Positions 18,201 to 56,591 of a stretch of DNA of 64,000 bases are shown here, piece after piece. The stretch spans positions 617,847-681,846 of the forward strand of contig CAWHFX010000002.1 of NCBI GenBank assembly GCA_963828715.1. The letters run 5' to 3'. The notes under the pieces were generated by a model that was not told the origin of the DNA, did no database searches, and saw only the letters and a list, made by a program, of their open reading frames with translations. Numbering within the stretch: position 1 is the first letter of the stretch; every line of letters begins with the position of its first letter. The DNA comes from an uncultured beta proteobacterium. Lineage in GTDB: Bacteria > Pseudomonadota > Gammaproteobacteria > Burkholderiales > SG8-41. The position numbers and the translations under genes were made by a program.

Positions 18201-18256
18201 CCTAAAATACGAACACCGCAGGGGAAGCTTTTGAACGGTCAGAGCTCAGGCCGATT

Positions 18257-26144: not shown

Positions 26145-26226
26145 CCTGGCGACGGGGTCCACCGTGCGTTGAACGAAACGCGTCCCGGTCGCGTCGCATG
26201 GCCGGCGCGGCCTGTGGCCGTGGTTC

Positions 26227-29363: not shown

Positions 29364-29379
29364 GCGCGAATACCTCCGC

Positions 29380-31250: not shown

Positions 31251-31863
31251 CGCGCAGGTTGCCGGTGAATTTCGACATGGTCGCGCGCCCCGGCTCTGAA
31301 ATGCCTTGCGGCCGGATGAGGCGCAGCGCCGTCAGTCCCACTATCTTCATATCGAGCTTAAAGGAAAGGCGCTCGACGTACCAGACATCGAGCTCGAACC
31401 GCTGTGGCCACGAGAGCGCGTTACGGCCGTTGACCTGAGCCCAGCCGGTGACGCCGGGCCGCACGTCGTGGCGGCGCGCCTGACGCTCGTCGTACAACGG
31501 CAGGTACTCCATGAGCAGTGGCCGCGGCCCTACGAGGCTCATGTCGCCTCTGAGAACGTTCCACAACTGCGGAAGTTCATCGAGGCTCGACCGCCGCAGC
31601 CATGAACCGAACGCGGTGAGTCGCGACTCGTCGGCGAGTTGTTCACCGCTGCGGCCGCGCGCATCGCTCATCGTCCTGAATTTGTATAGCAGAAACGGGC
31701 GGCCGTTGAGCCCGGGACGCTGCTGCGCGAACAATATCGGGGAGCCGAGAATCGCGCGTATCAGCAGTGCGACAGTCACGATCAGCGGCAGCGTCAGCAA
31801 GAGGCACGTTGCCGAGAGAGATACATCGAGTATGCGTTTTCCCGTGGTTCGATAGAAAGCCAT
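31243..31863 (-). CDS. undecaprenyl-phosphate sugar phosphotransferase (PglC-like small initiating PGT)
   Basis: 206 aa with one N-terminal membrane helix and YKFRTM...DELPQLWNVLRGDMSLVGPRP. Confidence 0.88.
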   Translation of the reverse strand: MAFYRTTGKRILDVSLSATCLLLTLPLIVTVALLIRAILGSPILFAQQRPGLNGRPFLLYKFRTMSDARGRSGEQLADESRLTAFGSWLRRSSLDELPQLWNVLRGDMSLVGPRPLLMEYLPLYDERQARRHDVRPGVTGWAQVNGRNALSWPQRFELDVWYVERLSFKLDMKIVGLTALRLIRPQGISEPGRATMSKFTGNLRDE

Positions 31864-31914
31864 GAGCTGCCGGCGGGCTCGAGCTGCGGCCTCTTGCGCC
31901 GGCGGTATCGAATG

Positions 31915-33093
31915 CTAGCGGCGGCCTTGCTCCGCGTCAAAGCGTCCAGCGCGGGACACTTGACGACTCGCCTGAGGCCTCTGAAGTATGCGCTCGTAAA
32001 ACGCGACGACCGCCGCCGTCACCACATCGCGTGAGAAGTGGTTCAGCGCACGCTCGCGTGCGGCGTGCGCAAGCGCGCGCCGCTTCGGCTCATCGAGCGC
32101 GAGCAGACGCATCGCATCGGCAAGGCCTTCGACATCCGCGGCCGCCACGAGAATGCCCGTAACGCCATCACCTATCGCGTCCGTGATGCCGTAAATGCGC
32201 GAGCCGATCGCGGGCAGGCCGGCCGCTGCGGCCTCGATGATGACAGCGCCAAAGCCTTCGCGATAGCTCGGCAGGCAGAAGACGTCGCCCGCCGCCATGT
32301 ACCGCTCGGGCGCCTCGGTCATGCCGACGAGCCGGAGATTCGCGCCGGCCGCGCTGCGGACAGTGCCGGTCAGCGCTTCCTCGTCCGGTCCGACCAGCAC
32401 GAGATAAGCGTTGGTCTCGGCAGCGACCCGCGCGAACGCCTGCGCGAGATCGACCACGCCCTTGTCGCGTTTGAGCCGCCCGACAAAAACGAACACCGTA
32501 GCGGCATCCGGAATGTCCAGCTCGACGCGGACCAGAGCCCGCGTCGCCGGGTCGGGCCTGAAACGCGCTGCATCCACACCGCTGATCGAGCCGCTGGCGA
32601 GCACTTCACCCTGCCCGGGCCTGAGCACGTGCTGCTCCCGCAGGAAGGCGAGCTGGGACGCGCTGTCGGCGAGGACGTGCGTAGCGCAGGCCGCGAGCAG
32701 CCGGTCCAGCGATTTCAGTAACAGGCGCGTGAAGCCCGTTTGTGTCGCCCAGACCTGTCCGGTGAACGTATGCACTCGCAACGGCACGCCGGCCATGCGG
32801 CTCGCGAGCATTGCCAGCAGTCCCGCTTTGGGCGTAACCGAGTGCACGGCATCGAAGCGCTGCCGCCGACACAGGCGGTAGAGGCTCACCAGCGCGCGCA
32901 CGTCCGCGAGCGGCGAAATGTTGCGCACGATCGGCACCTGGAAGGCGGTAACGGGCATGCCGTGGAACAGTTCCGGCTCGTTATCGCCCGTGGCAATGCT
33001 GAGGTGGTATAGCGCGCTGAGCGCGCGGATCTGATCCATGAGGAACGCGCGGGCCGTGAAGGCGGTAGCCACGACCACGCACACCTTGTTCAT
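31915..33093 (-). CDS. glycosyltransferase family 4 (GT-B)
   Basis: In ORF 31915..33411. ATG at 33093 (MNKVCVVVATAF...) overlaps the upstream stop by 4 nt. EGFGAVIIEAAAAGLPAIGS motif. Confidence 0.8.
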   Translation of the reverse strand: MNKVCVVVATAFTARAFLMDQIRALSALYHLSIATGDNEPELFHGMPVTAFQVPIVRNISPLADVRALVSLYRLCRRQRFDAVHSVTPKAGLLAMLASRMAGVPLRVHTFTGQVWATQTGFTRLLLKSLDRLLAACATHVLADSASQLAFLREQHVLRPGQGEVLASGSISGVDAARFRPDPATRALVRVELDIPDAATVFVFVGRLKRDKGVVDLAQAFARVAAETNAYLVLVGPDEEALTGTVRSAAGANLRLVGMTEAPERYMAAGDVFCLPSYREGFGAVIIEAAAAGLPAIGSRIYGITDAIGDGVTGILVAAADVEGLADAMRLLALDEPKRRALAHAARERALNHFSRDVVTAAVVAFYERILQRPQASRQVSRAGRFDAEQGRR

Positions 33094-34037
33094 CGGCTGG
33101 CCTGCCAGACCTGAGCGAGCGCGCGAATGCCGGCTTCGACGGGCACGCAGTGCGTATAGCCCAGGTCGTCGCGGGCCCGCGCGATCGGAAAGGATGCGCG
33201 GTTCACCAGCGCGGATAAGCGTTTTTCGTTGAGCGGAAAGCCCGGAATGGGGCCGAGTGCGCGCGCGAGCCAGCGTGCTGGCCGCTCGGGCACGCGCAGG
33301 GTGGGTCTCGGCTTTCCGAGCGCACCTGCAATTTCGGCAACGAAACGCTCGAGGGGACAGTCGTCCGACAGGTTGTAGACGCGGGCGCCCGATGCGTTGC
33401 CGCGTCCGCATCGAATGAGCGCAGCAACCACGTTGTCTACGTGTACATAGTGGGTGAGCGCACCCGGCTCACCTATGAAGAAGAACAGTCCGCGATCGAT
33501 CAGCGCAAACAGACGAAACAGGATGTCGTTGTTCTCGCTGTCGATGCCGGCTCCGAATACTTTGGCCGGTCGCAGCACGCGTGCCGCGAAGCCGCCCTGC
33601 TGCGCTGCCCCGAGCACGATCTGGTCCGCTTCAGCCTTGCTGCGACCGTATAGATCGACTGGGTGCGGCGGCGTATCTTCGGTGATCACGCCTGTTTCCG
33701 GAGTGCCGTAAACCGCGATGCTGCCGAGCTGCACCCAGCAGCGTACCTTTGCGCGTGCAGCGGAAACGAGCCTGCCCGTGCCCGTGACGTTCACCTCCAT
33801 CATGCGCTGCGGATCGCGTATCTCCGCCGCACAGTGATAGAGCACGTCGGCGCCGTCGGCGAAACGTGCAAGCGTTGCGGAATCGGAGGCGAGATCGCCG
33901 CGGTGAACCTCGACCGCGGGCGGCAGCCCCGGTTGCGATTGCCTCGATAACGTGCGCACCAGATCGCCCGCTTCAAGGTGCTGGCTGACAAGCCGTCTTC
34001 CCAACGTCCCGGTGGCGCCGGTGATCGCGACGATCAT
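33090..34037 (-). CDS. NAD-dependent sugar epimerase/dehydratase (SDR family)
   Basis: MIVAITGATGTLGRRL Rossmann motif and YGRSKAEAD (YxxxK). Confidence 0.8.
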   Translation of the reverse strand: MIVAITGATGTLGRRLVSQHLEAGDLVRTLSRQSQPGLPPAVEVHRGDLASDSATLARFADGADVLYHCAAEIRDPQRMMEVNVTGTGRLVSAARAKVRCWVQLGSIAVYGTPETGVITEDTPPHPVDLYGRSKAEADQIVLGAAQQGGFAARVLRPAKVFGAGIDSENNDILFRLFALIDRGLFFFIGEPGALTHYVHVDNVVAALIRCGRGNASGARVYNLSDDCPLERFVAEIAGALGKPRPTLRVPERPARWLARALGPIPGFPLNEKRLSALVNRASFPIARARDDLGYTHCVPVEAGIRALAQVWQASR

Positions 34038-34049
34038 GGAAGCGTTTCT

Positions 34050-35000
34050 CTACGCATCTTCCAGCGCTGATCGCACGTCGGCGCGGCCGAGCAGCGAGCG
34101 CACGCAGATTCCGATCGCCTGCGCTTGTCCGAGCGTATTCTGCAGTCCTGCCGCATCGCGCCGTATGAGCGCGGCGAGCCCCTGACTCGCGCACTTCGCC
34201 GTCAGCATGGCGAGACAGGCCGAGCGCGAAAGCTCGGGATGCGACGATGCGAAGTAAAAGGTTGCAAGCGATGATTTGTGGCCGCGAAAGCGGTGCACCG
34301 CGTTGGGCGGAAACTGATCGAACGTCGCGACAACACGCACCTTCGCGTCCGCGCACACGTAAAGCGGATGTTGCTTGCCGACAGGGTAGCTGAACCGGAT
34401 GTCCTCGCCGATTGCCCAGCGCGTCCTCAACTCGGGCTGGCGATACTGCGCGAGGATATCGCGCCTCCAGACGGTATAGCCACCGCCGAGCCATTGTGTC
34501 CGGATGTCATGGTCGATCGCATCGATACGCGAGTTGTAACCCGAGCGCAACACGCGGCCCGGTGCCGGAGAGCGAACGAAAAGGCGTGCAAGCCAGGATG
34601 TGCGATACGGGGGCGCGTTGACGACGTTGAAGCCCACGCCGGCGGTGTCCGGCTCCGCGCGATTCCAGAATTCGATCATGCGCTCGAGCGCATCGGGTTC
34701 GAGGATAAGGTCGTCGTCGAGGAAGCCGATGAGCGGCGTGCGTTCATCCATGTGCGCGAGACCCAGATTGCGCTGGCGGATCTGGCCCGGCGGCTCGCAG
34801 TGGAAATACTCGACCGGCAAACGATCGCGAAAGCCGAGGACGTCGTCTTCGATGCGCATCCCGCTCGCCACGACAATCACGCGCCCGCACGGAACGGTCT
34901 GCGCGGCAAGGCTGTCGAGGAGGCTGCGGACGAGAGCAGGCCGGTCCTTGGTGGGAATGAGCCACGCCAGATCGCGACCGGTGTATGAACGCCGCGTCAT
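34050..35000 (-). CDS. glycosyltransferase family 2
   Basis: WLIPTKDRPALVRSLLDSLAAQT...IGFLDDDLILEP (DxD). Confidence 0.7.
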   Translation of the reverse strand: MTRRSYTGRDLAWLIPTKDRPALVRSLLDSLAAQTVPCGRVIVVASGMRIEDDVLGFRDRLPVEYFHCEPPGQIRQRNLGLAHMDERTPLIGFLDDDLILEPDALERMIEFWNRAEPDTAGVGFNVVNAPPYRTSWLARLFVRSPAPGRVLRSGYNSRIDAIDHDIRTQWLGGGYTVWRRDILAQYRQPELRTRWAIGEDIRFSYPVGKQHPLYVCADAKVRVVATFDQFPPNAVHRFRGHKSSLATFYFASSHPELSRSACLAMLTAKCASQGLAALIRRDAAGLQNTLGQAQAIGICVRSLLGRADVRSALEDA

Positions 35001-36682
35001 CAGCCGAGCACCGCGTGCGTCATCTGCCGCATTGCTTCTGTGCTCGGCGCGCGCAGGTATGTTTCCGCATAGTCGCGCGCCTCGGCCCTCAATGCTGCGA
35101 GCGCCTGTGCGTCCATGCGGCCCACGCGATCGATCGTGTCGGCAAGCGCTTTCCCTCCGCTCACGCCGAATTTGAAGCGATAGTCACCGATGATCGGATC
35201 GCCGCTCGGCAGATCCCCGATCTCGACGTAAACGGGCAGGCGCCCGTAGAGCATGCCTTCGAGAGCGACCGTGGAAGAACTGTATGCCACCGCGCTTACG
35301 CGCGAGAGGTCTTCCGCCAGAGTACGTCCAGTCGAGAGCTGCACGTTCGGTTTCGAAGCGAACAGTGCGAAGAGGTCTTCCACCGGGATGGTGGGATGCG
35401 TGCGCACGATGAACGACACGCGAGTGAGCGCCGCGGCTTCGTGCGTCGTCTTGAGCAGGCTCAGCGCTTCGTTGCGGTTGGACGAAATCGCGACAAGCAC
35501 CGCAGCCGATGTTGGTGGGGGCACGTTTTGCCGGACCGTGCGCAGACTTGCGCCAACCGTGATTCTGCCGGCGAGCGTGGGCGCCCATTCCTTCAGCAGA
35601 CTTTCCGTTTGAGCGCCGATCGTGACGATACAGTCGGGCAGATATCGCGAAGCGTCTTCTCCGTCGGCGATGTGAAACGCGAGATGGCGCGGCGTGATGG
35701 ACGAGTGCTGATAGCCCACGCGCCGATGGACGCCATGACGCTGCGCCTGTGCGAGAAGATGCTTTTCCCAGCTCCGATTTTCGAATGGATAGACGAGCAC
35801 GTCCGCGCGCACGTGTCTCAGCATGCCGGCGAAACCGACTTCGAGGACTCGCTGCATGAAATACTCGCCCGAGCGGATTTCGGTCAGACGCATGTACCGA
35901 TGCAGTGCGGCAAGCGAGGCGTGCTGCGGGACCTTCGCGTCGCGTGCCGCCCAGAACAGAGCGCGGAACCATGCGCAGACGACCGACAGCGGCGTTACGA
36001 AGGCCTCGAATGGCGCACGCGCTGCATCCGCCGGCAAACGCACGGTCGATCCCGATGCGAGATAAACCGTACGCGTGGGCGCTTCATTGCCAAGGGTTTG
36101 CGCCAGATCACCGAAGTACGCGTCCGCGGACTGGCGCGGCACACCGCTGCTCAAGGTAAAGAACAGAACTCGTGCGGAGAATCGGCTGGCTCTGTTCAGA
36201 ACCGTTCGCAGGAGGGTGCGCGTGAAGCGTGCCCACGCCCGTCGCGAGGGGAGCGTGGACGTTCGCCCCACGGGTACGCCGCAGAAGAGCTCTGCGAAGA
36301 GCGAACGCAGGCGTGGATCGGGTGCGAGGACCAGAACGTCGCGATCAGGGTATGCGGCAGCCGAAGCCTTCACGAGAAATACATTCTGCAGATCCTGGTA
36401 GCCGGGTATCGATAGCACGACTTTCGACGAATAGGCGAAGCGCCAATTCGGATCGGACTGCGCGGCTTCACCGAAAAACTCATGAATCGCAGTCAGCGCT
36501 GCGCGCCGAATGCGTTCGTCGGCATCGAGCGCGCTGTGCCCACGCTGCCGCACGGATTCCTCCAGACGGAGCACCTCGGCCGGAACGAGCCGGTCGCGGT
36601 TACAGATCGCGTATGCGCATGAGGTCGCACCCGCGAGCGCATCCGCAAAAACCTGCAGATCGTGAAAGAGGCGCAACGGCAT
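35000..36682 (-). CDS. uncharacterised surface-carbohydrate biosynthesis protein (possible GT-B-like transferase)
   Basis: 560 aa ORF with coding-like composition in a polysaccharide operon. I see no diagnostic motif. Tentatively resembles the family annotated 'surface carbohydrate biosynthesis protein' (from memory only). Confidence 0.4.
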   Translation of the reverse strand: MPLRLFHDLQVFADALAGATSCAYAICNRDRLVPAEVLRLEESVRQRGHSALDADERIRRAALTAIHEFFGEAAQSDPNWRFAYSSKVVLSIPGYQDLQNVFLVKASAAAYPDRDVLVLAPDPRLRSLFAELFCGVPVGRTSTLPSRRAWARFTRTLLRTVLNRASRFSARVLFFTLSSGVPRQSADAYFGDLAQTLGNEAPTRTVYLASGSTVRLPADAARAPFEAFVTPLSVVCAWFRALFWAARDAKVPQHASLAALHRYMRLTEIRSGEYFMQRVLEVGFAGMLRHVRADVLVYPFENRSWEKHLLAQAQRHGVHRRVGYQHSSITPRHLAFHIADGEDASRYLPDCIVTIGAQTESLLKEWAPTLAGRITVGASLRTVRQNVPPPTSAAVLVAISSNRNEALSLLKTTHEAAALTRVSFIVRTHPTIPVEDLFALFASKPNVQLSTGRTLAEDLSRVSAVAYSSSTVALEGMLYGRLPVYVEIGDLPSGDPIIGDYRFKFGVSGGKALADTIDRVGRMDAQALAALRAEARDYAETYLRAPSTEAMRQMTHAVLG

Positions 36683-36711
36683 GAGCCGTTACACGCGGAG
36701 AACACTGACGG

Positions 36712-37845
36712 CTATTCGCCCTTCGCGCGATACTGCTCGCTCAGGCGCTCGTTCTCGAGCTCTCTGCCGTCCACCAGATTGTACAAGTCGGTATTGGATA
36801 GCTTGACCGCTTCTTCCGGTGGCAGGTTGTGGCGGTTCGTATAGATCAGCGCGTCGGCATGCGGGCGAAGCTGATCGCACTGGTCGCAGTAAGGGAACAT
36901 GCCAAACTCTTTCGCGCGATGGGCGAACCGCAACAGCCGGTATTTCGGGCTGTTGAGTAGTTCGAGGACGCCCTGCTCGAAGGCGTTGCCGAGCACGATG
37001 TGATTGTTGTAGTCGTAGCAGCAGGGTATCACCTCCCCGTTCCACTGGATCTGGAACGGGCCGTTCTCGGGGCGTCCGCAGGTGGTCTTGTCTTCGCTGC
37101 GTGCGCGATAGTCGCGGCCATCGCCGAAATTGTGCGGCTTCCATATTTCGACGGCATTCACACGCGGCACCCAGAATTCGCGGAAAGCGTCGGTATCCGA
37201 CTTGTTTTCCGGCAGCTCGAGGTAGGAGATCTGGACGCGCGTGTTCGACCCGAGCTCTCCGCGGATGCGCAGAAACTCGAGGACGCCCTTCATCGTTCGG
37301 TTGAAATCGAGCCCCTGCATCACGGCGTTGTAAGTTTCCGGACGCATGCCATAGAAGCTCACGCGCATCTCGGAGAGCCCGGACTCCATCAGCTTGCGCG
37401 AGCGTCGCGGCGTTAGCGCCGAACCGTTCGTAATGAAGTAAGTGGACAGGCCCTTGCCGTGCGCGTACGCGATCTTGTCTTCGAGGCGCTTGTCGAGCAT
37501 CGGCTCGCCGAAGCCCGTCAGCACGATCTTTTTCGCCCCGAGCTGCACGACTTCATCGATGCTGCGCTCGTACTTCCCCTGGTCCATGATGCCGTGCTCG
37601 CGGCCGTGCTCGTGCTTGTCGCGCGGGCACATGATGCAGGTCGCGTTGCAGTTGTCCGTGACTTCGTAGCGGACTTCGGGGTGGAGGAGGCGGGTGATCT
37701 CCGGCTCGTTTTCGAGCTCGCGCAGAAGAGCCGCGAGACGCGCCGACTCCGCGACGACGCTGCCATCCGCAAGCAGCCGCGGCTGTCCGTAGCGGTCCTC
37801 GTCCAGGGCGCGGATTGGAATAATGCGTTTAGCGGTTGCCAGCAC
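36712..37845 (-). CDS. radical SAM enzyme with a SPASM-like C-terminal Cys cluster
   Basis: CNATCIMC (CX3CX2C), GFGEPML, and C-terminal CGRPENGPFQIQWNGEVIPCCYDYN...CDQCDQ. Confidence 0.8.
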   Translation of the reverse strand: MLATAKRIIPIRALDEDRYGQPRLLADGSVVAESARLAALLRELENEPEITRLLHPEVRYEVTDNCNATCIMCPRDKHEHGREHGIMDQGKYERSIDEVVQLGAKKIVLTGFGEPMLDKRLEDKIAYAHGKGLSTYFITNGSALTPRRSRKLMESGLSEMRVSFYGMRPETYNAVMQGLDFNRTMKGVLEFLRIRGELGSNTRVQISYLELPENKSDTDAFREFWVPRVNAVEIWKPHNFGDGRDYRARSEDKTTCGRPENGPFQIQWNGEVIPCCYDYNNHIVLGNAFEQGVLELLNSPKYRLLRFAHRAKEFGMFPYCDQCDQLRPHADALIYTNRHNLPPEEAVKLSNTDLYNLVDGRELENERLSEQYRAKGE

Positions 37846-38392
37846 CGGTGGTTCCTTGAATTAACGCGCGATTTTACACGAAGTCACTGATTCGTTGCAG
37901 TTTATCGGCTTACTTATCCTGCGGTGAAACCTGAGCCGAGCGATGTCGGGACTGCAGACCCTCCAGGCTGGCGAAATCTCGTGGGCTCGCATGCGACCGT
38001 AGTCCGATATGAGGCAAGGCGCGCCGCTCCGAGTTCCGCAGACTGCTCACATTCCGATTGCCCACGGTCCGAGTTGTCGTGCGGGCGTGAGCCGGCGCGG
38101 CAGAAAGACGTTTTGAAGCGTCGTTCAGGACGTACTATTTCTGGCCAAGTCTCTGAAAAACTGAGGACAACTTGAAATTGAAGACCGTAACGACGCTTTA
38201 CGAAGCGTCGTTTATGAACACTGCTTCTCGTTGAACTAAACCGCTTCTCGGTGGTTGTCGCACTGCCTGCTGTTCTCTCCGCGCTGGTCGATAGTCGATT
38301 GCCGTTGCTGATCGTGCGGGCCGCGAGGACGCTGGTGCGCCTGTGTCAGGCTGTTTTCGGGAATGTTCCCGAGCTTGATACAGGAGACCGTG

Positions 38393-38470
38393 ATGAGCGC
38401 GTTGCGCAAGCAGATGGAAGAAGCGATGGCCGTGCGCGGGTTGGCCCACCGCACACACAACGCTTCGGTT
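38393..38470 (+). pseudogene. remnant of the N-terminus of a tyrosine recombinase/integrase (SAM-like N-terminal domain); about 26 codons only
   Basis: MSALRKQMEEAMAVRGLAHRTHNASV matches the stereotyped start of IS91/Tn-associated phage-integrase-family proteins (MSxLRxxMIEDMxLRGLSxxTQxxY). Similarity stops where the antisense methyltransferase gene begins. Confidence 0.5.
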
Positions 38471-38478
38471 GCTTTAGT

Positions 38479-39363
38479 TCATTCCTTGCACAGGAACACC
38501 AACATATCGTGGCCCGCGCCCATCCAGCGAGATGGCATATTGAGCAGCTCAGAGCCAATCTTGGCGACAGCATGGAGAGGTGTGGATACGGCGTGTTTTT
38601 CAACAAAGCGAACGTTGCGCGTTTCAATGTCTACCAGTTTAAGCCCGCTACGCTGCGCAGCTATACTCATTGAACACGGATTGAAGAAACTGATGTGGCC
38701 ACCCATGCGCCAAAGATCAAAGCCATCCCAGCGGGCACCCATGATGCGCGCAGTCCAGCTGGCCGAATTCGGTGTATTGACAACCAAAATACCGCCGACA
38801 CTTAGAATTCGCGCACACTCCCTGAGCATCACGAGCGGGTCGGTTAGGTGCTCGAGCAGCTCTAACAGCGTAATCACGTCAAATGCGGCGTCGCCGAAAC
38901 GCAGTTCATTCAAATAACCACTGTATACGTTAAGTCCCTTTGCCCGCGCCGCTTCGGCAGGCCTTTCTGCCGGTTCAACACCTGTCGCGTCAATGCCCAT
39001 GCTTAGCGCCACAGCGAGCAGGGCACCGGAAGAACAACCGACATCCAAGAGGCGAACTGGGTGCAAAGCTTTGGGAAGCAGACGGAGTCCTTTACTTAAA
39101 CGCCGCCGCGCAACGATTTCGTGCCGTTTAACCGACTCCACCGAGGGTTCTGTCCCGTTGGCGGTATTCCATTTTTTCAGTGCCGCGCGGTAGTCATTGG
39201 GCGAACACTGGCTGATTAGCTGAGTGCATTCGCGGCACCGCAAAAGCTCGCCCTCGGTAGTGACGATCCCTGAGTCGACCAGCCCGCCTTCGCAGCCGAG
39301 AGGGCAATTCGTCAGTAATCTATGCTCTGTCATGCGCAAACCGCTGTTAATTGCTCGCGCCAT
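38479..39363 (-). CDS. class I SAM-dependent methyltransferase with an N-terminal Cys4 zinc-ribbon-like segment
   Basis: In ORF 38479..39702. Candidate ATGs at 39363 and 39333 (MTEHRLL...). CPLGC...CRECTQ, then motif I LLDVGCSSGALL and LLELLEH. Visibly more A+T-rich than its neighbours. Confidence 0.75.
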   Translation of the reverse strand: MARAINSGLRMTEHRLLTNCPLGCEGGLVDSGIVTTEGELLRCRECTQLISQCSPNDYRAALKKWNTANGTEPSVESVKRHEIVARRRLSKGLRLLPKALHPVRLLDVGCSSGALLAVALSMGIDATGVEPAERPAEAARAKGLNVYSGYLNELRFGDAAFDVITLLELLEHLTDPLVMLRECARILSVGGILVVNTPNSASWTARIMGARWDGFDLWRMGGHISFFNPCSMSIAAQRSGLKLVDIETRNVRFVEKHAVSTPLHAVAKIGSELLNMPSRWMGAGHDMLVFLCKE

Positions 39364-39434
39364 AGAAAGATAGGCTAAGAACACGCGCGGACTTTGTCTA
39401 CCGCCGTCGCTTCGCGAAGCCGCGAACGGCCCTG

Positions 39435-40487
39435 CTAGTGCTGACCCGGCACTGCACGAGCGAACGCATTCAGCCGCGACACCAGCTTCTGTGTTGCCGA
39501 CGCGTGCACATCGAAATAGTCGTCGAACGAACGAAGCAGATGGTCGCGGAAACTCGCGTCCGATAACAAGCGCCTCAGCGACGGCTCGACGGACTTCGCC
39601 GAACTCACGACATCGACGGCCCCCGCCGTGCAGAACGGCGGAACCGCATAGCCCTTCTTCTCGCGCAGACGTGCACCGCCCGCATCCGGCAGCAGCACGC
39701 AAAGGCCCGGTATGCCGTAGAAGCCCGCTTCGATGGCGACCGAGGAGAATTGCGTGATGACGAGTCGCGGGCCGGCAGCAAGCGCATCAGCCACACTCAG
39801 CGCCGTCATGTCCTCATAAGCGATTGCTGCGTCTTCGAGTAGCTTCTGATAGCTACCGTCCGCATAGCCCGGATCGCGGGGATGTGCTTTCAGCATGACG
39901 CTCGCGCCGCACGGGCGCAGCGCCGGGACCAGTGCGTTCAGCGTCCGGAGGCAATCCGCGGTTTCGGGCTGCCCGGCCCACAGCACGGGAGGACTCCGCG
40001 CGTTCTGTAGACGCCAGCGTGCTTCTGTCGCTTCTCTTAGCTCGGCGAGCCGCGCGCGATACACGTCGTAGCGCGCCGGACTCAGGACCTCGCACGGCGG
40101 TGCCAAACGACCGAGCTTTTGCACGCACAGTTCACGTGCAGGCAGGCTTTCCACGATCGCGAGGCTCGCTTCGCCGCCCCGCACATCGGAGTAGTTACCG
40201 GGAAAGTCTTCGATAGCGACGACCGGAAAACCGGCTGCCCGCGCACTGCGTCGCGCTGCGCTCTCGACGCGGCGACCCCGATCGCTGTCGGATGTGCCGA
40301 CAACCAGCACCGATGCGACCGTGTTCGCAAAGCGCTTCCGCCAATACGCTTCGTCCGCGCACTCGGCTGAAGCGATGTCCTCCAGCGCGACGTCGAGCGC
40401 GTCTCCAACCGGCTTCAGCGCATCGCGCGCACCTCCGTCGCACGCGACGAGTACGAAACGCATGAAGTCCGGCGCGTTTGCCGCCAC
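39435..40487 (-). CDS. hypothetical protein, possibly a GT-B-fold transferase
   Basis: 350 aa with two Rossmann-like halves (FVLVACDGG...VLVVGTS...; VLWAGQPE...VITQFSSVAIEAGFYGIP). No firm family assignment. Confidence 0.4.
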   Translation of the reverse strand: MAANAPDFMRFVLVACDGGARDALKPVGDALDVALEDIASAECADEAYWRKRFANTVASVLVVGTSDSDRGRRVESAARRSARAAGFPVVAIEDFPGNYSDVRGGEASLAIVESLPARELCVQKLGRLAPPCEVLSPARYDVYRARLAELREATEARWRLQNARSPPVLWAGQPETADCLRTLNALVPALRPCGASVMLKAHPRDPGYADGSYQKLLEDAAIAYEDMTALSVADALAAGPRLVITQFSSVAIEAGFYGIPGLCVLLPDAGGARLREKKGYAVPPFCTAGAVDVVSSAKSVEPSLRRLLSDASFRDHLLRSFDDYFDVHASATQKLVSRLNAFARAVPGQH

Positions 40488-49317: not shown

Positions 49318-50271
49318 TCAGGTTGCACAGAGTTCGAGAACGTTCGTCGCCCACGACAGCCCGACGCCGAACCCGGAAATCAGTATCCGGCGAGGGCGCT
49401 CATCCAGCAGCGGCTCGAGCGCAATCGGGATCGTGGAGCCGACGGTATTGCCGCCGTCGGCCACGTCGATCACGACTTTGCCCGGGGGCAGCTTCATGCG
49501 GTCGCGCAGCGACTCCAGCATGAAGCGATTCGCCTGGTGGAACACGAAGCGGTCGATGTCATCCAGTTTGAGCCCGTTCAACGCGAGACACTGCTCGACG
49601 TGTCGCGGGACCCTGGACATCGCGAACGAATAAATCGCGCGTCCGTCCATGAACAGCTTGCTGTGCTCGGACGGCGCGCGCGAGCCGCCGGATTTTACTA
49701 TAAGCGCTCCGGCGCCGCCGCCGTCGGTCCCGAAGACGGCTTTACCGGGGCGATACAGCGGCTGCTCGGTGAGGAGTGTCGCCGCCGCCGCGTCGCTGAA
49801 GAGCGGCGCGGTCGCGCGGTCGGTCTCGTCCATCACCTTGCTGTAGCAATCGGCCGTGATGAGCAGGGCCCGCGTGTGGCCGTCTTGCCCCAGGAACGGC
49901 GCGACGGCGGACAGCCCGTATACGTAGCCCGAGCAGCCGAGGCTCATGTCGAAGCTCGCGACCGAAGCCGGGAGGCCGAGCCTCTTCTGGACCAGCGCCG
50001 CCGTGTGCGGAAGCTGGTAATCGGGCGTTTGCGACACCACCACGAGCGCACCGATTTCCTGCGCCGGTACACCCGTCTTCTCCAGCAGCGCACAGGCCGC
50101 TTCCGTAGCGAGGTCGGAGGTGGCCTGATCGTCCGCCGCGACATAACGCGTCGCGATGCCGAGTTTTTCGCGCACGAAGGACGCGTCGAAGCCGCGCTGC
50201 ACGCCGTCGGCCACGTTGTCGATGCGCCTGCGCCCGTAGGCGTGCGCGATGGCCGAGATTCCAATTGTCAC
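49318..50271 (-). CDS. 3-oxoacyl-ACP synthase III (FabH-like KASIII)
   Basis: C-terminal third of the artefactual 778 aa ORF. The GTG at 50271 overlaps the upstream stop (GTGA). Catalytic triad contexts are SLGCSGYVYG, FHQAN and GNTVGSTIP. Confidence 0.85.
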   Translation of the reverse strand: MTIGISAIAHAYGRRRIDNVADGVQRGFDASFVREKLGIATRYVAADDQATSDLATEAACALLEKTGVPAQEIGALVVVSQTPDYQLPHTAALVQKRLGLPASVASFDMSLGCSGYVYGLSAVAPFLGQDGHTRALLITADCYSKVMDETDRATAPLFSDAAAATLLTEQPLYRPGKAVFGTDGGGAGALIVKSGGSRAPSEHSKLFMDGRAIYSFAMSRVPRHVEQCLALNGLKLDDIDRFVFHQANRFMLESLRDRMKLPPGKVVIDVADGGNTVGSTIPIALEPLLDERPRRILISGFGVGLSWATNVLELCAT

Positions 50272-50922
50272 GCGTGCTCCTTCACGGCCGGCGCGATCTC
50301 GAAGCAGACCATGAGCGAGGTTGGGGCGCCAGCGAGCGCCGTATACGTTAGTCGGTTGATCGTGAGAACGCCGTTGCCCGTCTTGCGCGTGATGAGATTC
50401 TTCGCTTCCAGCGTGCCGCTGAATGCCGTGTCCGCCGGCGGGACCGCCCAATTCTCCAGGTATCCAAAGCGTACGACCGCAGGTTCGCTTCCGCCCACGG
50501 TGAGCTCGTGGAAGCGCTTGTTTGCCTCGATCGTCGCGCGCACCAGATCCTTGCGGTTCGCCGGTGCGATCCGGCACATTCCGCCGAACGCCTTCGCGCG
50601 CGACATCCGAAACCGCATAGCTTACGTGTTCACGCCGACGTACTGGGGCGCCGTCCTCCGCAAAGAATCCATGACAGAGCGCACCGTCCACCGTCGCGAC
50701 GAATGTGGCATTCGCGGCATCGAGCTCACGGTCGGCGCGCGCTTCGTGTCCCAGCACGAGTCGCCCGTTCGATGTCGCGGTCCGCTGCAGCTTGAGACGT
50801 TTGACCATGACAGCCGCGCCCGGAAGTCGCTCTGCCGCGTCCAGGAACGCATCGAGTATCGACGTTCCGTGAATGTAATCGCGCGTGCCGAGAAATGGAA
50901 AATCGGTGCGGACTTCGATCAT
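50268..50922 (-). pseudogene. unknown-function gene 'X' (~217 aa) with its reading frame broken once (one extra base near 50576-50620)
   Basis: The start MIEVRTDFPFLGTRDYIHGTSILDAF... (ATG 50922, 4-nt overlap with the GNAT stop) is in one frame. The end ...CRIAPANRKDLVRATIEANKRFHELTVGG...CFEIAPAVKEHA (ORF 50268..50618, stop overlapping the KASIII GTG) is in another. Both ends are translationally coupled to their neighbours. Confidence 0.55.
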
Positions 50923-51654
50923 GCGAGCCGCAGGCGCGAGTAATGATCGTCTATGGTTGTCGCAAGCACTTTCTGCAACTTCTGTTCGAGGCTTTCCCCG
51001 GGCAGGTCCCGGATGAGCGCCATGATCCGGTCCTGCCCCGGCCAGAGACGTCCGCCGCGCACGCACTTCAACGCGAGATAGTCTTCGAGCAGGCAGCCGG
51101 AAACCATCAGATCGTGAGGTCCGATGGCCTTTGCGGAAGGCTTTGCGCATGATGCCTTCCATTTTGTAGCCGAACAGGATCTGCCAGCGCTGCCAGTCCT
51201 TGAGCGCCGTCGACTGGTACGAATTGATGCGCTCGAGGCCGACCGTGTCGAATGCGTGCTCGGTCATGAGGCATTTCGCTTCCATGCCGTAGAAGCTGCT
51301 CTTGAATGTCTCCGAGCGCTTCGCGACGATCATCGCGAAATCGGCCTGCCGCGTCACATGAGAAATCCTGGACAGAGAACAGATGCCGACCACACGATCT
51401 TCGTTCTTCGGCTTGATCATGAGCGCGATGCGGGACTGTGTGCTGCGCAATTCGGCGAGGAACGCCTCCTGCTGCACGGCAGAGGTCGGGTACATGCCCT
51501 GTTCCATGTTGCGCGTGAGCGTCTGGTCGTTGAGCCACGTGTGCCACCGATCGACATGGATCGCGCGCTCGTTGGGCAGCACGAGGTCGACGAGCTCGCC
51601 CGCGAGAAACATGTCGTAATGCGGAGCGCTCGAAGGTGCGGTTGCTTCGGTCAT
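50919..51654 (-). pseudogene. GNAT (RimJ/RimL-type) N-acyltransferase with its reading frame broken once (one extra base near 51117-51135)
   Basis: The N-terminal ~176 aa (…GMEAKCLMTEHAFDTVGLERINSYQST...GYKMEGIMRKAFRKG) are in the 51654 frame. The expected continuation PHDLMVSGCLLEDYLAL...SRLRLA is in ORF 50919..51107. Confidence 0.65.
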
Positions 51655-52742
51655 CCGTTCGTCTCCCGACGTGCGTTGTCGTCGACCAGATCCCAGGTCA
51701 TGGGTGTGCCCCGCTCAACCTTGCGCGTCACGCGCTTCCCGAGCAGCGCGTCCATGTGCTTCGGCGCGAGCCCGAGACCGGGCCGTATCGCGCGCAGGTT
51801 ACGTTGCGTCAGCGTGTCTCCGGGCTCGAGGTCCTCGACCACGTACAGAGAGCGCCGGAACTGGAGCGATGTGCGCTCCGCTTCCGTGGGGCCATAACGC
51901 ACATCACCGAGCGCGAGCCACGCCCGCTCGCTCTCCGCCACGAGCGTTTTCAGCTCGTCGGGTTCCAGCGAGAACGCGGAATCCACGCCGCCGTCGGCCC
52001 GGCTCAGCGTGAAATGCTTTTCGATCACGCTTGCGCCGAGTGCGACCGCGGCAACGGCCACACCGATGCCGCCGGTGTGGTCCGAAAGGCCTGCCTCGCA
52101 CGAGAACGCTTCGCGCAGTGCCTCGATCGTCCGCAGGTTCGTGTTTTCCGGAGAAGCCGGATACGTACTCGTGCATTTGAGCAGCACGAGGTCGCGGCAG
52201 CCGGCCCTGCGCGCTTCGCTCACGCTTTCCTCGAGCTCCGCCCGCGTCGCCATGCCGGTCGAGATGATCATCGGTTTCCCGGTCGCCGCGACTCTGCGGA
52301 TCAGCGGAATGTCGGTGTTTTCGAAGGAGGCGATCTTGTAGCACGGCACGTCGAGCTGCTCCAGAAAATCGACCGCGCTCGCGTCGAACGGCGCGCTGAA
52401 GCCGATCAACCCGCGGGCGCGGCAGCGCTCGAAAATCGGCGCGTGCCATTCCCACGGTGTGTGCGCCTCGTCGTAGAGATCGTGAAGGCTGCGTCCGCGC
52501 CACAGGCTGCCGGCGTCGTCGATACGGAACTCACCACGATCGACATCGATCGTCATCGTGTCCGCGGTGTAGGTCTGGATCTTCACCGCATGTGCGCCGG
52601 CATCGGCGGCTGCATCCACGATGGCCAGGGCGCGGTCGAGCGAACGGTTGTGGTTGCCCGACATCTCCGCCACGACGAACGGTCTTGCGTCGCGGGCGAT
52701 GCGCCTGCCGCCGATGGTGACCGCGGTATCGCGCTTATCCAT
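51651..52742 (-). CDS. pseI: pseudaminic acid synthase
   Basis: In ORF 51651..52877, ATG at 52742. PFVVAEMSGNHNRSLDRALAIVDAAADAGAHAVKIQTYTADTMT...YKIASFENTDIPLI...GLSDHTGGIGVAVAAVALGA plus a C-terminal SAF domain. Confidence 0.88.
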   Translation of the reverse strand: MDKRDTAVTIGGRRIARDARPFVVAEMSGNHNRSLDRALAIVDAAADAGAHAVKIQTYTADTMTIDVDRGEFRIDDAGSLWRGRSLHDLYDEAHTPWEWHAPIFERCRARGLIGFSAPFDASAVDFLEQLDVPCYKIASFENTDIPLIRRVAATGKPMIISTGMATRAELEESVSEARRAGCRDLVLLKCTSTYPASPENTNLRTIEALREAFSCEAGLSDHTGGIGVAVAAVALGASVIEKHFTLSRADGGVDSAFSLEPDELKTLVAESERAWLALGDVRYGPTEAERTSLQFRRSLYVVEDLEPGDTLTQRNLRAIRPGLGLAPKHMDALLGKRVTRKVERGTPMTWDLVDDNARRETNG

Positions 52743-52744
52743 CT

Positions 52745-54280
52745 CTATAGCTCGAGCGTCCAGATCTCGCGCACCCGTCTGTAACCGGCATTGCTGAACG
52801 CACGCAGCGACGCCACGTTCTCGCGGTGAATCTCGGCGTGCACGCGAGACGCATTCGGGCGGTGCTCCCGCAGCCACTGCGTGCCGGCGCGAAGGAGCGC
52901 AGTGCCGAGGCCGCGCCCAGCTTCTTCGGGCACCATGTATACGGAGGCGGTCGCTTCATCTCCCGCCATATCATAGCGCAGCACTCCGACCGGCCGGCCC
53001 GCAGCCTCACCGACGAGCAGCACGACGTCGGGCTCGCGCAGCACGCGTTCAAACCAGCGCCGGTGCTCGGTGAGCGCGATGGCTTGCGTGCTGTTCGAGT
53101 AGCGGCGCGTGCTCTCCGCGTTGCGCCAGGCGTATATTGCCTCGCAGTCGGACGTTTGCGCCGTCCGCAGGGAAATCGGTGCAGGCAGCATGCACGCGGC
53201 CGCACGCCGCGCGCCGAGACCATCGGTAAGCGCGGCGGCTCGCGCCGCAAGCGCCGAGAGAAGCGATGGGGTACCCGCCAGGGCGCGCAGATGAGCGCTC
53301 AGTGTCTCGGCACGCCAGTCTGTCGCGGCGCCGAGATAGATGCACGCCCGATCCGCTGCAAGATCGACCGCGACGACGTGCTGGTTTTCCGCGACGCTCA
53401 CGACGATCGCCGGCACGCCGACGGCCGCACGTTCCCAGTTCATCACGCCGCTCGCACCGATCGCAAGGTCCGCCTGTACCATGAGACCGGCCATGCGTGT
53501 CACGTCGAAATGTACCTGCCAGCCAGCCTGCCGGCAGCGCTGCTCGATCTCGGTCCGGTCTGGATGGTCGCCCGAGACGACAACGTCCGCCGATAGGCCA
53601 TCGAGCCCGGCCTGTTCGAGCGCCCGCAGCGCGCGCAGTGTCTGCCGCATGCCGTCGAAACCGCCGAAACACACGAATACACGCCGCAAGCGCCCGTCGC
53701 GCTCCGCGCTCCTTCCGCGCGCCTGCGCGAACTCCTCGCGCAGCAGCGCGAACCGCGGCCCGAGCAGGCGCTCGGCGTGCGCCGGCATACGCGCGTGGTA
53801 TCGCGTTTGCGCGTCGAGAAAAAAGTTCTGGTCCAGCAGCGCATCGCACACGTGATCGCGGTCGGCCAGATCGTCGATGACGAGAATGCGCCCGACGTGC
53901 GGCTGAACGATGCGTTCCCAGCGCGCATCCAGCGCGTAGTGATCGACGATCAGCCAGTCGGGACGGTCGCCTGCACGCAGCACCGCGGCTGTCTGGGCCG
54001 CGTCCAGTTGCTGCGGCACCGGCAGCCACGCGGCGTGTGCGAGCGGCGGGCTCCCGTCCGGCTCGAAATCGGCGGCGGGCGTGGGAACGGTTTCGAGGGC
54101 GTGCACGGGTACGCGCAGGGGCGTGACGAGAAGCTCGCGAACCCGCTCCGGAAGTCCGCGCGAGGCAAGCTCGATGCGCGCGCCGCGTTCCTTCAGTGCA
54201 TGCGCAAGCGCCATGCAGCGCGCAAGGTGTCCGCCGCCCATGGCGGCGGACGCATCACAGCGAATCACCACACGCGTCAT
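52745..54280 (-). CDS. pseG: bifunctional PseG (UDP-sugar hydrolase) / PseH (GNAT N-acetyltransferase) fusion
   Basis: N-terminal MTRVVIRCDASAAMGGGHLARCMALAHAL (PseG). C-terminal ~160 aa GNAT (ISLRTAQTSDCEAIYAWRN...GRGLGTALL...ENVASLRAFSNAGY). Confidence 0.85.
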   Translation of the reverse strand: MTRVVIRCDASAAMGGGHLARCMALAHALKERGARIELASRGLPERVRELLVTPLRVPVHALETVPTPAADFEPDGSPPLAHAAWLPVPQQLDAAQTAAVLRAGDRPDWLIVDHYALDARWERIVQPHVGRILVIDDLADRDHVCDALLDQNFFLDAQTRYHARMPAHAERLLGPRFALLREEFAQARGRSAERDGRLRRVFVCFGGFDGMRQTLRALRALEQAGLDGLSADVVVSGDHPDRTEIEQRCRQAGWQVHFDVTRMAGLMVQADLAIGASGVMNWERAAVGVPAIVVSVAENQHVVAVDLAADRACIYLGAATDWRAETLSAHLRALAGTPSLLSALAARAAALTDGLGARRAAACMLPAPISLRTAQTSDCEAIYAWRNAESTRRYSNSTQAIALTEHRRWFERVLREPDVVLLVGEAAGRPVGVLRYDMAGDEATASVYMVPEEAGRGLGTALLRAGTQWLREHRPNASRVHAEIHRENVASLRAFSNAGYRRVREIWTLEL

Positions 54281-55575
54281 TCAGCGGACCCGGAAGACCG
54301 GCTGTATCGGCGGTCCGAGAAGCCGTTTTCCGATGTCGCCGGCGTCGAGCGCTTCACGCACCGCGGTACACGCTTCCCGCTGGGCGCGGTCGAGCTGAGC
54401 AAGGTCGCTTTCGCCGTGCGCATAGCACATGTTGTACGAGCCTGCCGTCAGGATGCCGCGTCCGATCAGTTCCTGGAGAAAGAGCGACTTCACCTGCGCT
54501 GCCGTCGCTCCGGCGGCATCCCTGAACTGCATCAGGCTCCAGCTCGGTTTGCCGCAGATCGCGATCGCCGCGGAAAGCCCATTCCGCTCCACATTGGCGC
54601 GCGTCAATGCGATCACGCGCTCTCCCATCGCGTTCAGCTTCTCGTGCACCGGTTCGCGCTGCATCTTGCGTACGGTCGCGAGCGAGGCGGCAAGGCTCAC
54701 CGTTTCACCCCCGAACGTGCTCGAAAAGAAAATCTCTTCCATCTCGGCCATGTAACGCGCGCGCCCCACCACGGCGGAAATGGGAAAGCCGTTGCCCATG
54801 CTCTTGCCGAACGTTGCAAGGTCGGGAACGACGTCGAACAGCGTCTGGGCGCCGCCGATGTGGTAGCGGAAACCGGTGATGATCTCGTCGAGGATGAAAA
54901 GGGCGCCGTACTCGTGCGCGAGATCGCGAACAGCCTGCAGGTAGCCCTCCCGCGGCTCTTCCGCGTTCATCGCCTCCATCATCACCGCGGCGAACTCGCC
55001 CTTGCGGCTTTCGAGCGTGTTGCGCAGCGCGTCGAGATCGTTGTATGGAAATTTGTGCGTCAGATCGCCGACGACCGCCGGTACCCCTTTGTTGCGCGTG
55101 GTGGCGCCGATGTACCAGTCCTGCCAGCCGTGATAGCCGCATACGGCGACGCGATCGCGACCGGTGTAGGCGCGTGCGATGCGGATCGCCCCGACTCGTC
55201 GCGTCGCTGCCGTTCTTGCCGAAGCGAACCATTTCCGCGCACGGAATGAGCTCGCATAGCAACTCGGCCAGCTCGATTTCGAGCTCGGTCGCGAGACTGA
55301 ACGTGACGCCACGCTTGAGCTGAGCGGTGACGGCTTCGGTGACGTCGGGGTCATCGTAGCCGAGGATCACCGGCAGGAGGCCGTTCACGAAGTCGACGTA
55401 TTCGTTGCCGTCCACGTCCCATACATGGCTGCCGCGTCCGTGGCTCAGAAAGAGCGGCGCGGCGTTCGCCGGATACACGATGCGGCTCTTGCTGAAGGTC
55501 TGCGCTGCCGAGCGGAATGACGCGCTCCGCGCGTTCCAGCAGCGCTCGGCTTTTCTGGTATCGATCGGGCTTCAC
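54281..55575 (-). pseudogene. class-III (glutamate-1-semialdehyde aminomutase-like) aminotransferase with its reading frame broken twice
   Basis: Three consecutive frames carry one protein: MKPDRYQKSRALLERAERVIPLGS (from 55575); QTFSKSRIVYPANAAPLFLSHGRGSHVWDVDGNEYVDF...FGKNGSDATS (ORF 54705..55478); AIRIARAYTGRDRVAVCGYHGWQDWY...STFGGETVSL... (ORF 54281..55354). The shifts lie near 55500-55506 and at the C4/G4 run 55189-55192. Confidence 0.75.
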
Positions 55576-56591
55576 GCGTTTGCGCTCACGTAGGTTGGCC
55601 GCTTTGCCGTCCCGCCCGCGCGCGCAGATTCGAGTGCGGCGAGCGCGACGCTGAGAACGTCGGCTGCGTCGGCGGCGGATAGCAGTGGGGTCGTGCCCGG
55701 TTCCTCGATTTCGCGCAGGAACGCACGCATGAGGTCCTGATAGGGCTTCGCCGTATCGACCTTCGTCACCTCGTCAATTGTCTTCCACGTCCCGCCGTCC
55801 AGCGGAAAAAAACGTACGGAGCAATGCTCCGGGTCCTTGCCGTCGCTGTGCCACGCGAGCACCCCATGCGTGCCGATGATCTCGCAGCCGCGGCTCTTGC
55901 GCGGCCTCAGATAGTCGAGCTCGGCGGACGCCCGCGTGCCTGCGGCATGTTCGATCGAGAGCAGCGCGTGGTCCTCGACATCGATATCGAGGGCCGAGAG
56001 CTTCTCCGCGCGGCAGGTCACGTTCGCGACTTTACCGAAGAGCCAGGTGAGATAGTCGATCTCGTGCACGGCGTCGAGCACGACGCCGCCACCTTCGGCA
56101 CGGCGTGCGGCGTAAAGCGCGCGGTAATCGCGTCCGGGTCGCATCGACGGAAGGAAATTGCCCACGTGTGCGCGCGCGAAAAGGGGCGTGCCGACGCGGG
56201 GGAGCGATCGTTTCAACGCCGCGGGGCCGGGATGGAAACGCATGTTGCAGACGACGTAGGCCCGACGACCACGCGCATTCGCAGCATCGAGAAACTCGCG
56301 CACGCCGTCGAGATCGTGCGACAGCGGCTTTTCGACGAGAACATCCGCGCCGGCCTCGATGGCGCGCTTTGCGAGCGCCACATGCGAGCGATGAGGGGTC
56401 GCGACGACGACGGCCCGCGGTCCCCACGCCAGCGCCTCCTCGAGGGTCGCGAAGGCGATCGCTCCGGCAGCAGCTGCGCAGGTCCGTGCGTTCTCGGCAA
56501 TGCTGTCCGTGACAGCAACCGTGGCGAGCGAAGAAGCATTCTGCGCATGCCGCGTGCCGATAGAGCCGCAGCCCACGACCAGCACCTTCAT
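55572..56591 (-). CDS. Gfo/Idh/MocA-family NAD(P)-dependent oxidoreductase
   Basis: In ORF 55572..56807. ATG at 56591 (4-nt overlap with the pseF stop). MKVLVVGCGSIGTRH and VLVEKPL. Confidence 0.8.
   Translation of the reverse strand: MKVLVVGCGSIGTRHAQNASSLATVAVTDSIAENARTCAAAAGAIAFATLEEALAWGPRAVVVATPHRSHVALAKRAIEAGADVLVEKPLSHDLDGVREFLDAANARGRRAYVVCNMRFHPGPAALKRSLPRVGTPLFARAHVGNFLPSMRPGRDYRALYAARRAEGGGVVLDAVHEIDYLTWLFGKVANVTCRAEKLSALDIDVEDHALLSIEHAAGTRASAELDYLRPRKSRGCEIIGTHGVLAWHSDGKDPEHCSVRFFPLDGGTWKTIDEVTKVDTAKPYQDLMRAFLREIEEPGTTPLLSAADAADVLSVALAALESARAGGTAKRPTYVSANA

Follow-up and report, generated by a model that had tools for sequence, protein, structure and literature searches.

Four single-base frameshifts interrupt three accessory genes of the pseudaminic acid region in the window (the whole 64,000-nucleotide stretch of DNA analyzed here). 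Judged from sequence comparisons, the four extra bases are probably (with a probability of roughly 0.7) artefacts of consensus calling or polishing, at a locus that varies between strains, and not mutations present in the organism. All three genes lie on the minus strand: a class-III (GSA-aminomutase-like) aminotransferase (54281..55575, 430 aa when repaired), a GNAT-type N-acyltransferase (50919..51654, 244 aa), and an uncharacterized gene with a predicted double hot-dog fold, gene X (50268..50921, 217 aa). Three-frame translation finds two breaks in the aminotransferase, whose copy in the window is thus spread over three frames (2 to 0 to 1), and one each in the GNAT and gene X (both 2 to 0). 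When near-identical contigs are aligned with gaps allowed, one extra base appears at each break, at window positions 55503, 55193, 51118, and 50603 (sites 1 to 4). A preliminary description had reported four breaks in the same direction, each mended by the deletion of one base, and both translation and alignment agree; all four bases fall inside the intervals it had given or within 1 nt of them. Deletion of the four bases leaves all three genes free of stops.

The extra base at site 1 (minus strand) is the G in GGCAGC[G]CAGACC, which duplicates neither of its neighbors and is missing from nine of the nine contigs spanning the site. No population variant is found in its vicinity, the nearest polymorphic site being 28 nt away. 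At site 2 (minus strand), a C precedes a G4 run (ACGAGT[C]GGGG); it is missing from 7/7 short-read contigs, and long-read contig L083 lacks it as well. A second long-read contig, L102, reads AGTCGGGCG here, with a C replacing the first G at the identical position. Site 3 (51118..51121, minus strand) has both an extra C (CGGAC[C]TCACG) and, 3 nt from it at 51121, a substitution that is unique to the window and differs from all 16 covering short-read contigs; the 17 comparators of this region all read CGTACT(C/T)AC, and the site sits 2 nt from a common C/T SNP (His/Tyr). The T at site 4 (GGATG[T]CGCGCG, minus strand) falls exactly on a C/T SNP of the population (Ala/Val), of which the window has both alleles in tandem. 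T replaces C at this position in L084, L085, L104, and L105, and the other 13 comparators have C.

None of the four inserted bases extends a run of more than 1 nt, and three of them copy no adjacent base. The longest runs within 12 nt of the sites measure 2, 4, 2, and 3 nt, respectively, and the three genes contain homopolymers of up to 5 nt. A search of the surroundings for a shared methylation-type motif found none, GATC occurring 4 to 6 nt downstream of sites 2 and 3 only. These properties bear on the idea of phase-variable contingency sites, at which reversible slippage at simple repeats would switch glycan modification. Phase variation is known at nonulosonic-acid modification genes of other bacteria, such as the Campylobacter flagellar glycosylation loci, and the genomic context here would fit. 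Nevertheless, no site has a repeat tract, the inserted bases extend none of the runs nearby, and every other population sample is in the ON state at all four sites. For want of repeats, phase variation was rejected and has next to no probability.

Evidence for the artefactual origin of the extra bases comes from some 20 metagenome contigs that were assembled independently and belong to the same population (97–99.9% identical), drawn from JGI, ENA, and Logan and representing more than 15 samples. All of them lack the four bases and encode intact proteins of 430, 244, and 217 aa, and the four extra bases are the only gaps in the alignment with short-read contigs over 43861–64000. An intact 430 aa aminotransferase is encoded by L081, L082, and L098–L102. 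The repaired window proteins, moreover, exist as such: the aminotransferase equals P0017 exactly, which is intact on one other contig, the GNAT equals P0022 (intact on six contigs), and gene X equals P0037 (on ten). In the GNAT and gene X, the closest contigs differ from the window at insertion sites only; L097 is 100% identical except at site 4, and L094 and L096 differ at sites 3 and 4. Frameshifted products were found nowhere else among some 15 billion proteins, which is weak evidence given that the lineage has possibly been sampled only once. A scan of metagenome-contig DNA for site 3, in either length, returned one already known contig and no independent frameshift allele. Burkholderiales MAGs are the closest relatives bearing a name, which would fit an unannotated MAG as the source, and a PseG-H scan of genome contigs gave a best match of 62% identity among the matches listed, with no close genome there.

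More distant orthologues in L001 and L002 (PseG-H identity of 62% and 55%) are single ORFs, as in L081–L105. A comparison of orthologues had been proposed beforehand, and its outcome is that related sequences encode single intact ORFs without the four bases. Programmed +1 ribosomal frameshifting, by which full-length proteins would still be made, could account for the common direction of the four shifts and for the seamless continuation of each downstream frame. The shift, however, occurs in no orthologue, near or distant, and the sites (AGC-G-CAG, AGT-C-GGG, ACC-T-CAC, and GAT-GT-CGC) have no common motif. To our knowledge, four recoding sites in three adjacent genes of a single strain are without precedent. 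As the interrupted frames are not conserved, recoding was rejected, and hardly any credence is left for it.

A more serious contender, although a rather unlikely one, is that the breaks are real and very recent, with four independent 1-nt insertions inactivating the side-branch genes (aminotransferase, GNAT, and gene X) while the core Pse pathway was kept; selection might, for example, have come from phages or predators that target a decorated surface glycan. Glycan-modification genes are commonly lost by frameshift in bacteria. Consistent with such loss, the breaks are limited to three functionally linked accessory genes, and PseG-H, PseI, KASIII, and the other genes tested are intact. The assembly is also not error-prone in general, as disruptive indels relative to short-read contigs are absent elsewhere, and the C shared by L102 at site 2 could be a real base in that lineage. 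That the hits spare PseG-H and PseI and all lie in accessory genes counts against an error, the chance of this placement being about 0.07 by length alone, and the same placement would also be expected from selective loss of the side branch.

Against real pseudogenization stands, first, that other datasets contain the exact repaired alleles but never the frameshifted ones. Second, differences unique to the window in the three genes (2.7 kb) comprise four insertions versus one substitution, which is far from the natural spectrum; over the 9.5 kb covered by at least three comparators, unique substitutions number six. In mutation-accumulation data for Burkholderia cenocepacia, there is reportedly about one indel for every ten substitutions. 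Insertions are no more common than deletions among Burkholderia pseudogenes or in a B. cenocepacia mutation-accumulation experiment (PMC6054270), and yet all lesions here are insertions, all of 1 nt, and three are non-templated. Third, a second hit in the aminotransferase cannot be selected, yet this gene shows 13 synonymous and 4 non-synonymous codon changes relative to L081, a ratio resembling that of purifying selection, and it has no stop, deletion, or other lesion. Signs of neutral decay were sought in all three genes and not found: there are no deletions or nonsense changes, and the non-synonymous fraction is low. Finally, the base inserted at site 4 is the other allele of the SNP at that very position. 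The insertions might also be real through an unusual local process, either insertion-prone repair or recombination at SNP-bearing heteroduplexes or strong parallel selection that switches off each side-branch step, which is very improbable. The heteroduplexes could in that case come from exchange between co-occurring strains, and the side branch could be an N-acyl/amino modification on pseudaminic acid. Were such a process at work, the window would capture a soil Burkholderiales lineage in the first moments of losing its glycan decoration.

The preliminary description had listed pseudogenization, strain heterogeneity, and sequencing errors without ranking them. Error or strain heterogeneity is now favored, and real pseudogenization less so, because the bases are missing from every near-identical independent assembly, because the repaired alleles are found intact elsewhere, because natural decay would give neither such an indel-to-substitution ratio nor such non-templated insertions, and because two of the insertions (sites 2 and 4) match alternative bases seen at these exact positions. 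The source would most likely be a long-read or hybrid MAG of an uncultured soil Burkholderiales bacterium. Frameshift-causing indels are well documented in long-read assemblies (PMC9262707). The locus itself provides an example: L083, a Flye-style long-read contig from the same population, differs from the short-read contig L081 by 46 indel events, 28 of them insertions and 35 of them not of the homopolymer type. Its indels relative to the window are strongly clustered, reaching 35 per kb at 56–57 kb with none from 43 to 49 kb, and errors of this type, clustered in this manner, therefore do occur at this locus. The rest of the window is very clean, which excludes errors that arise uniformly and makes it necessary to assume a local cause. 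A spurious base may be emitted by the consensus where reads of co-occurring strains are collapsed or where local coverage is poor. Within the locus, variation between strains is greatest in the pseudaminic acid accessory genes; polymorphic sites make up 5.6% of the GNAT and 3.5% of gene X versus 1.3% overall, making these two the most polymorphic segments. At some sites, both alleles of a SNP may have been emitted one after the other. As a general rule for every insertion, this mechanism is only partial, being clean at site 4 and partial at site 2. For site 1, it is unsupported, with no variant known nearby, and for site 3, the haplotype it requires, CGGACCTAC, was not found among the comparators.

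If the extra bases are such artefacts, the true aminotransferase, GNAT N-acyltransferase, and double hot-dog protein would be intact. The intact aminotransferase orthologue was scored against profiles and matches Pfam Aminotran_3 (PF00202) with an E-value of 1e-47 (163 bits versus a cut-off of 30.5), and it scores 441 bits with NCBIfam PRK06209, under the cut-off of 486. The GNAT matches Pfam Acetyltransf_3 (E = 3e-7). Gene X has no match in Pfam or NCBIfam profile searches; its homologues form 32 clusters of 205–222 aa, except for one of 137 aa. Its AF2 model (pLDDT 93) resembles PKS dehydratase (DH) domains and acyl thioesterases in Foldseek (probability 1.0, TM of about 0.5, identity 8–15%), and on the basis of this model gene X is predicted to be a double hot-dog fold protein. 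Together with KASIII, ACP, and WbuX/Y/Z-type amidation genes, the three proteins would decorate a nonulosonic acid.

The genes surrounding the breaks are intact. The two pairs of insertions flank a 511 aa PseG-PseH fusion (52745..54280, minus strand), which scores 255 bits with NCBIfam PseG (cut-off 153.6), carries a GNAT domain at its C-terminus, and has orthologues of identical length. A protein identical to it is encoded on one Logan contig, which stops short of the frameshift sites. The pseudaminic acid synthase PseI (51651..52742, minus strand, 363 aa) scores 500 bits with NCBIfam PseI (cut-off 340), and the FabH-like KASIII (49318..50271, minus strand, 317 aa) matches Pfam ACP_syn_III and ACP_syn_III_C. 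Downstream of KASIII follow an ACP and then WbuX/HisH/WbuZ-type amidation genes, in the gene order of L081; WbuX scores over its NCBIfam cut-off and WbuZ slightly under. The integrity of these core genes bears out what had been described, except that the gene directly upstream of the aminotransferase (55572..56591) encodes a GFO/IDH/MocA oxidoreductase and not PseC. Similarly, the 4-nt overlaps said to be preserved at both ends of the interrupted genes exist for the oxidoreductase/aminotransferase, PseI/GNAT, GNAT/gene X, and gene X/KASIII pairs, whereas the aminotransferase and PseG-H abut with an overlap of 0.

The frame breaks also create a 778 aa ORF (49318..51654, minus strand), which had been regarded as an artefact of open off-frames. 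Alignment by blastp with the intact proteins of L081 resolves it into a chimera of GNAT residues 1–179, an off-frame segment, gene X residues 1–106, a second off-frame segment, and the entire 317 aa KASIII. Among the window's intact genes, the off-frame it uses is stop-free for 65 codons in 57% of sliding windows and for 111 codons in 40%. An off-frame so commonly open supports the view of this ORF as an artefactual fusion. No contig other than the 978,880-bp source contig carries its product, P0019, or the frameshifted P0012.

The remainder of the window was likewise found to be intact, as had been stated, as far as codon usage, protein lengths, and short-read contigs allow this to be tested. 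The GC3 frame plot was too noisy for detecting frameshifts, and a codon-usage Viterbi path was used instead; over the window, it shows no further frame break. Eight other window proteins have cluster relatives, and seven of them are of exactly equal length, the eighth being off by a 2-residue start shift at 25333. Relative to short-read contigs, indels at 1–9898 and 23940–38321 are intergenic or at gene ends only. The window's other indels relative to its relatives are mostly changes in repeat or homopolymer copy number, all of them are intergenic or at gene ends where they are tolerated, and no other disruptive coding indel was found in the roughly 45 kb that can be compared with relatives.

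An annotation that accepted the breaks as they stand would list three pseudogenes and a spurious fusion protein of 778 aa, and it would deny the organism a glycan-modification branch that is very probably present. As this case illustrates, comparison with near-identical metagenome contigs can separate consensus errors from real decay when the reads are unavailable. Real breaks would represent an ordinary case of recent loss of surface-glycan modification genes. As assembly errors, which they most likely are, they make for an ordinary finding of mainly cautionary value.

The breaks resemble the consensus indels of long-read or mixed-strain assemblies in that otherwise intact, conserved genes are split by single-base indels that short-read assemblies of the same population lack, and in that another long-read contig of the population shows the same type and clustering of errors. 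They differ in that the literature on such indels stresses homopolymer deletions, and all four here are insertions, of which none lengthens a run of more than 1 nt; they are also unusually local, with the remainder of the window clean. With young frameshift pseudogenes, they have in common that the disrupted frames belong to a surface-glycan locus and to accessory genes that are dispensable, but relaxed selection and other types of lesion are absent, indels exceed substitutions, and a single assembly is affected. The locus as a whole is similar to Pse loci with WbuX/WbuY/WbuZ-type amidation and acyl modules, as curated models identify PseG-H, PseI, WbuX, HisH, and a WbuZ-like gene, with KASIII, ACP, and the GNAT alongside. 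Unlike standard Pse loci, it additionally contains gene X and the GSA-aminomutase-like aminotransferase with its GFO/IDH/MocA oxidoreductase.

Three genes beside the pseudaminic acid genes are interrupted, all on the minus strand: a class-III aminotransferase (AT, 54281-55575), which in three-frame translation passes from frame 2 to 0 to 1, a GNAT acyltransferase (50919-51654, frame 2 to 0) and X, a gene without family assignment (50268-50921, frame 2 to 0). Intact minus-strand genes for PseG-PseH (52745-54280) and PseI (51651-52742) lie between them. The locus is bordered on its upstream side by a GFO/IDH/MocA oxidoreductase gene (55572-56591), where the preliminary labelling had implied pseC, and on its downstream side by genes for KASIII (49318-50271), ACP, HisH/WbuZ-like proteins and WbuX. 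AT, GNAT and X are single colinear ORFs in two distant orthologous loci (L001 and L002; PseG-H identity 62% and 55%). Besides PseI (363 aa, window 51651-52742), the locus encodes another NeuB-family synthase, a paralogue of 328 aa adjoining the CMP-transferase gene (window ~57.3-58.4 kb); in the close relative L082 they lie at 12832-13494 and 7316-8302, respectively. This may reflect a second nonulosonic-acid branch or duplication followed by divergence.

The AT fragment of the window (357 aa) shares a 90% cluster with full-length proteins, all of 430 aa, and the contigs of these proteins provided two close relatives, L081 (99.42% identity across window 57117-44279) and L082 (99.30% across 64000-52078). 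There are exactly four gaps in the L081 alignment and exactly two in that of L082, each an additional base in the window: s1 at 55503 (GGCAGC[G]CAGACC), s2 at 55193 (ACGAGT[C]GGGG), s3 at 51118 (CGGAC[C]TCACG, with a substitution at 51121) and s4 at 50603 (GGATG[T]CGCGCG), all read on the minus strand. The extra bases are also missing, at every site covered, from eighteen more contigs (97-99.9% identity), which represent many soil and rhizosphere samples in JGI, ENA and Logan assemblies. The frame breaks first described are thus borne out by near-identical contigs and sharpened to four 1-nt insertions found in this assembly alone. Three of the four insertions are not duplicates of an adjacent base, and no run longer than 1 nt is extended by any of them. 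A PseG-H identical to that of the window is present in the Logan/SRA run ERR15459706.

Relaxed selection has left no trace in these genes, because the ORFs are stop-free once the four bases are deleted, the repaired AT, GNAT and X are identical to public proteins (P0017; P0022, on 6 contigs; P0037, on 10 contigs), the codon differences between AT and its L081 counterpart comprise 13 synonymous and 4 non-synonymous changes, and L097 matches the window except at s4, as do L094 and L096 except at s3 and s4. The frameshifted products, P0012 (357 aa) and P0019 (778 aa), occur on the source contig (978,880 bp) only. Nine of the 17 AT differences from L081 are packed into ~100 bp (window 54833-54925) and are absent in L082; this pattern suggests a small patch that may have recombined among co-occurring strains.

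We favor, at a probability of roughly 70%, the reading that the deposited consensus contains localized insertion errors, at a glycan locus that varies among strains. Indels are far rarer than substitutions in natural mutation spectra. The window has 6 unique substitutions in 9.5 kb (at positions with at least three short-read contigs), and AT, GNAT and X together have one, 3 nt from s3, versus four unique insertions. That the frameshifts are real and very recent is unlikely. Neutral decay yielding 1-nt insertions four times out of four, two of them in one otherwise selected-looking gene, is very improbable, and selection for inactivation fails to account for the insertion pattern either; in Burkholderia pseudogenes and a mutation-accumulation experiment, insertions are not commoner than deletions (PMC6054270). 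The four insertions nonetheless spare PseG-H and PseI, as a selective loss of side branches would.

Several observations favor a faulty consensus in a locus that varies among strains. The T inserted at s4 sits where four other contigs carry T for C (an Ala/Val SNP; C/T at 50602/50603), so that the window holds both alleles in tandem. At s2, the inserted C is the base that a long-read contig, L102, carries there instead of G, and a common His/Tyr SNP (C/T, 51116) is 2 nt away from s3, which also has an odd substitution beside it. Polymorphism in the region is highest in GNAT and X. The same population is represented by L083 (ENA ERZ25039581 contig_56543), a long-read contig in Flye style; its indels are mostly non-homopolymer, insertions are in excess, and within this locus the indels cluster strongly, with 35 per kb at 56-57 kb and zero from 43 to 49 kb. 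Its alignment to window 40918-61648 shows 111 gap openings in 20.8 kb, with a concentration at 56-62 kb and almost none at 43-53 kb. Along this single contig, the quality of the consensus at the locus varies sharply. The near-megabase source contig, whose proteins have neither accession nor annotation, fits an unannotated MAG from a long-read assembly, and the closest named relatives of those proteins are Burkholderiales MAGs. Gene-breaking consensus indels are documented for long-read assemblies (PMC9262707). Against consensus error, s1 has no known variant nearby, a search for a haplotype with which s3 could be read as a tandem allele found none, and the window is clean elsewhere, so that a local cause of the errors is assumed rather than demonstrated. 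The preliminary observation was accurate as a description, and its most probable cause is an ordinary one.

A codon-usage Viterbi path detects no further frame break in the window, in agreement with the view that its other genes are unbroken. Eight other window proteins were located in the protein collection, and seven equal their cluster relatives exactly in length; the eighth is 271 rather than 269 aa owing to a start shift at 25333. There, a 1-nt deletion relative to L108 affects the first codons of a GT2 glycosyltransferase, which retains an alternative GTG start, and leaves the stop of the upstream gene unaffected. Short-read contigs L106-L109 span window 1-9898 and 23940-38321, and in these stretches the only other indels are intergenic repeat-unit or homopolymer changes at 9119, 9210 and 37965-38257 and a 7-nt tandem duplication (TAGAAAC) at 3107-3113 relative to the 98.7% identical L109. 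The duplication alters the stop and last ~10 residues of a response regulator (155 versus 156 aa) and looks like a natural, tolerated slippage event. The natural indels of the lineage are thus mostly of repeat type and all tolerated, and the four insertions differ from them in kind, three being non-copying and none extending a run of more than 1 nt. A 1.6 kb stretch without coding signal and of lower G+C (~0.59) separates two glycan gene blocks at 37861-39461; it shows several small indels and denser substitutions relative to L106 and L107, the latter aligning piecemeal, and may mark where exchangeable gene blocks meet. The low-coding stretch at 17.6-19.4 kb contains a 6S RNA (18049-18227, minus strand, 65.7 bits) and a cobalamin riboswitch (18953-19165, plus strand, 94.6 bits) ahead of a plus-strand gene starting at ~19294.

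Programmed +1 frameshifting was rejected, as the interrupted frames are absent from all orthologues, close and distant, and no motif is common to the sites; phase variation was likewise rejected, a repeat tract being absent at all four. The 778 aa ORF, already called an artefact, proved to be GNAT 1-179, X 1-106 and the complete KASIII joined via off-frame stretches. In this DNA, that off-frame remains stop-free over 65 codons in 57% and over 111 codons in 40% of sliding windows, and in this ORF the two insertions offset, by chance, the shifts of -1 at the ATGA overlaps between genes.

By family and fold, AT is a predicted GSA-aminomutase-like class-III aminotransferase, paired with a sugar-3-dehydrogenase-like oxidoreductase, and GNAT is putatively a distant relative of PseH. 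The WbuX, HisH and WbuZ-like proteins suggest an acetamidino group, and X with GNAT, KASIII and ACP suggests that an unusual N-acyl group is made and attached to the nonulosonic acid. The X family is small and unannotated (homologues P0152-P0182; 32 clusters, all but one of 205-222 aa), with these clusters seen in soil metagenomes and Burkholderiales MAGs only. X adjoins GNAT, KASIII and ACP in every locus examined and may belong to a module that supplies pseudaminic acid with an N-acyl side chain. Its confident AF2 model (pLDDT 93) adopts a double hot-dog fold, resembling the dehydratase domains of PKS and acyl-ACP/CoA thioesterases.
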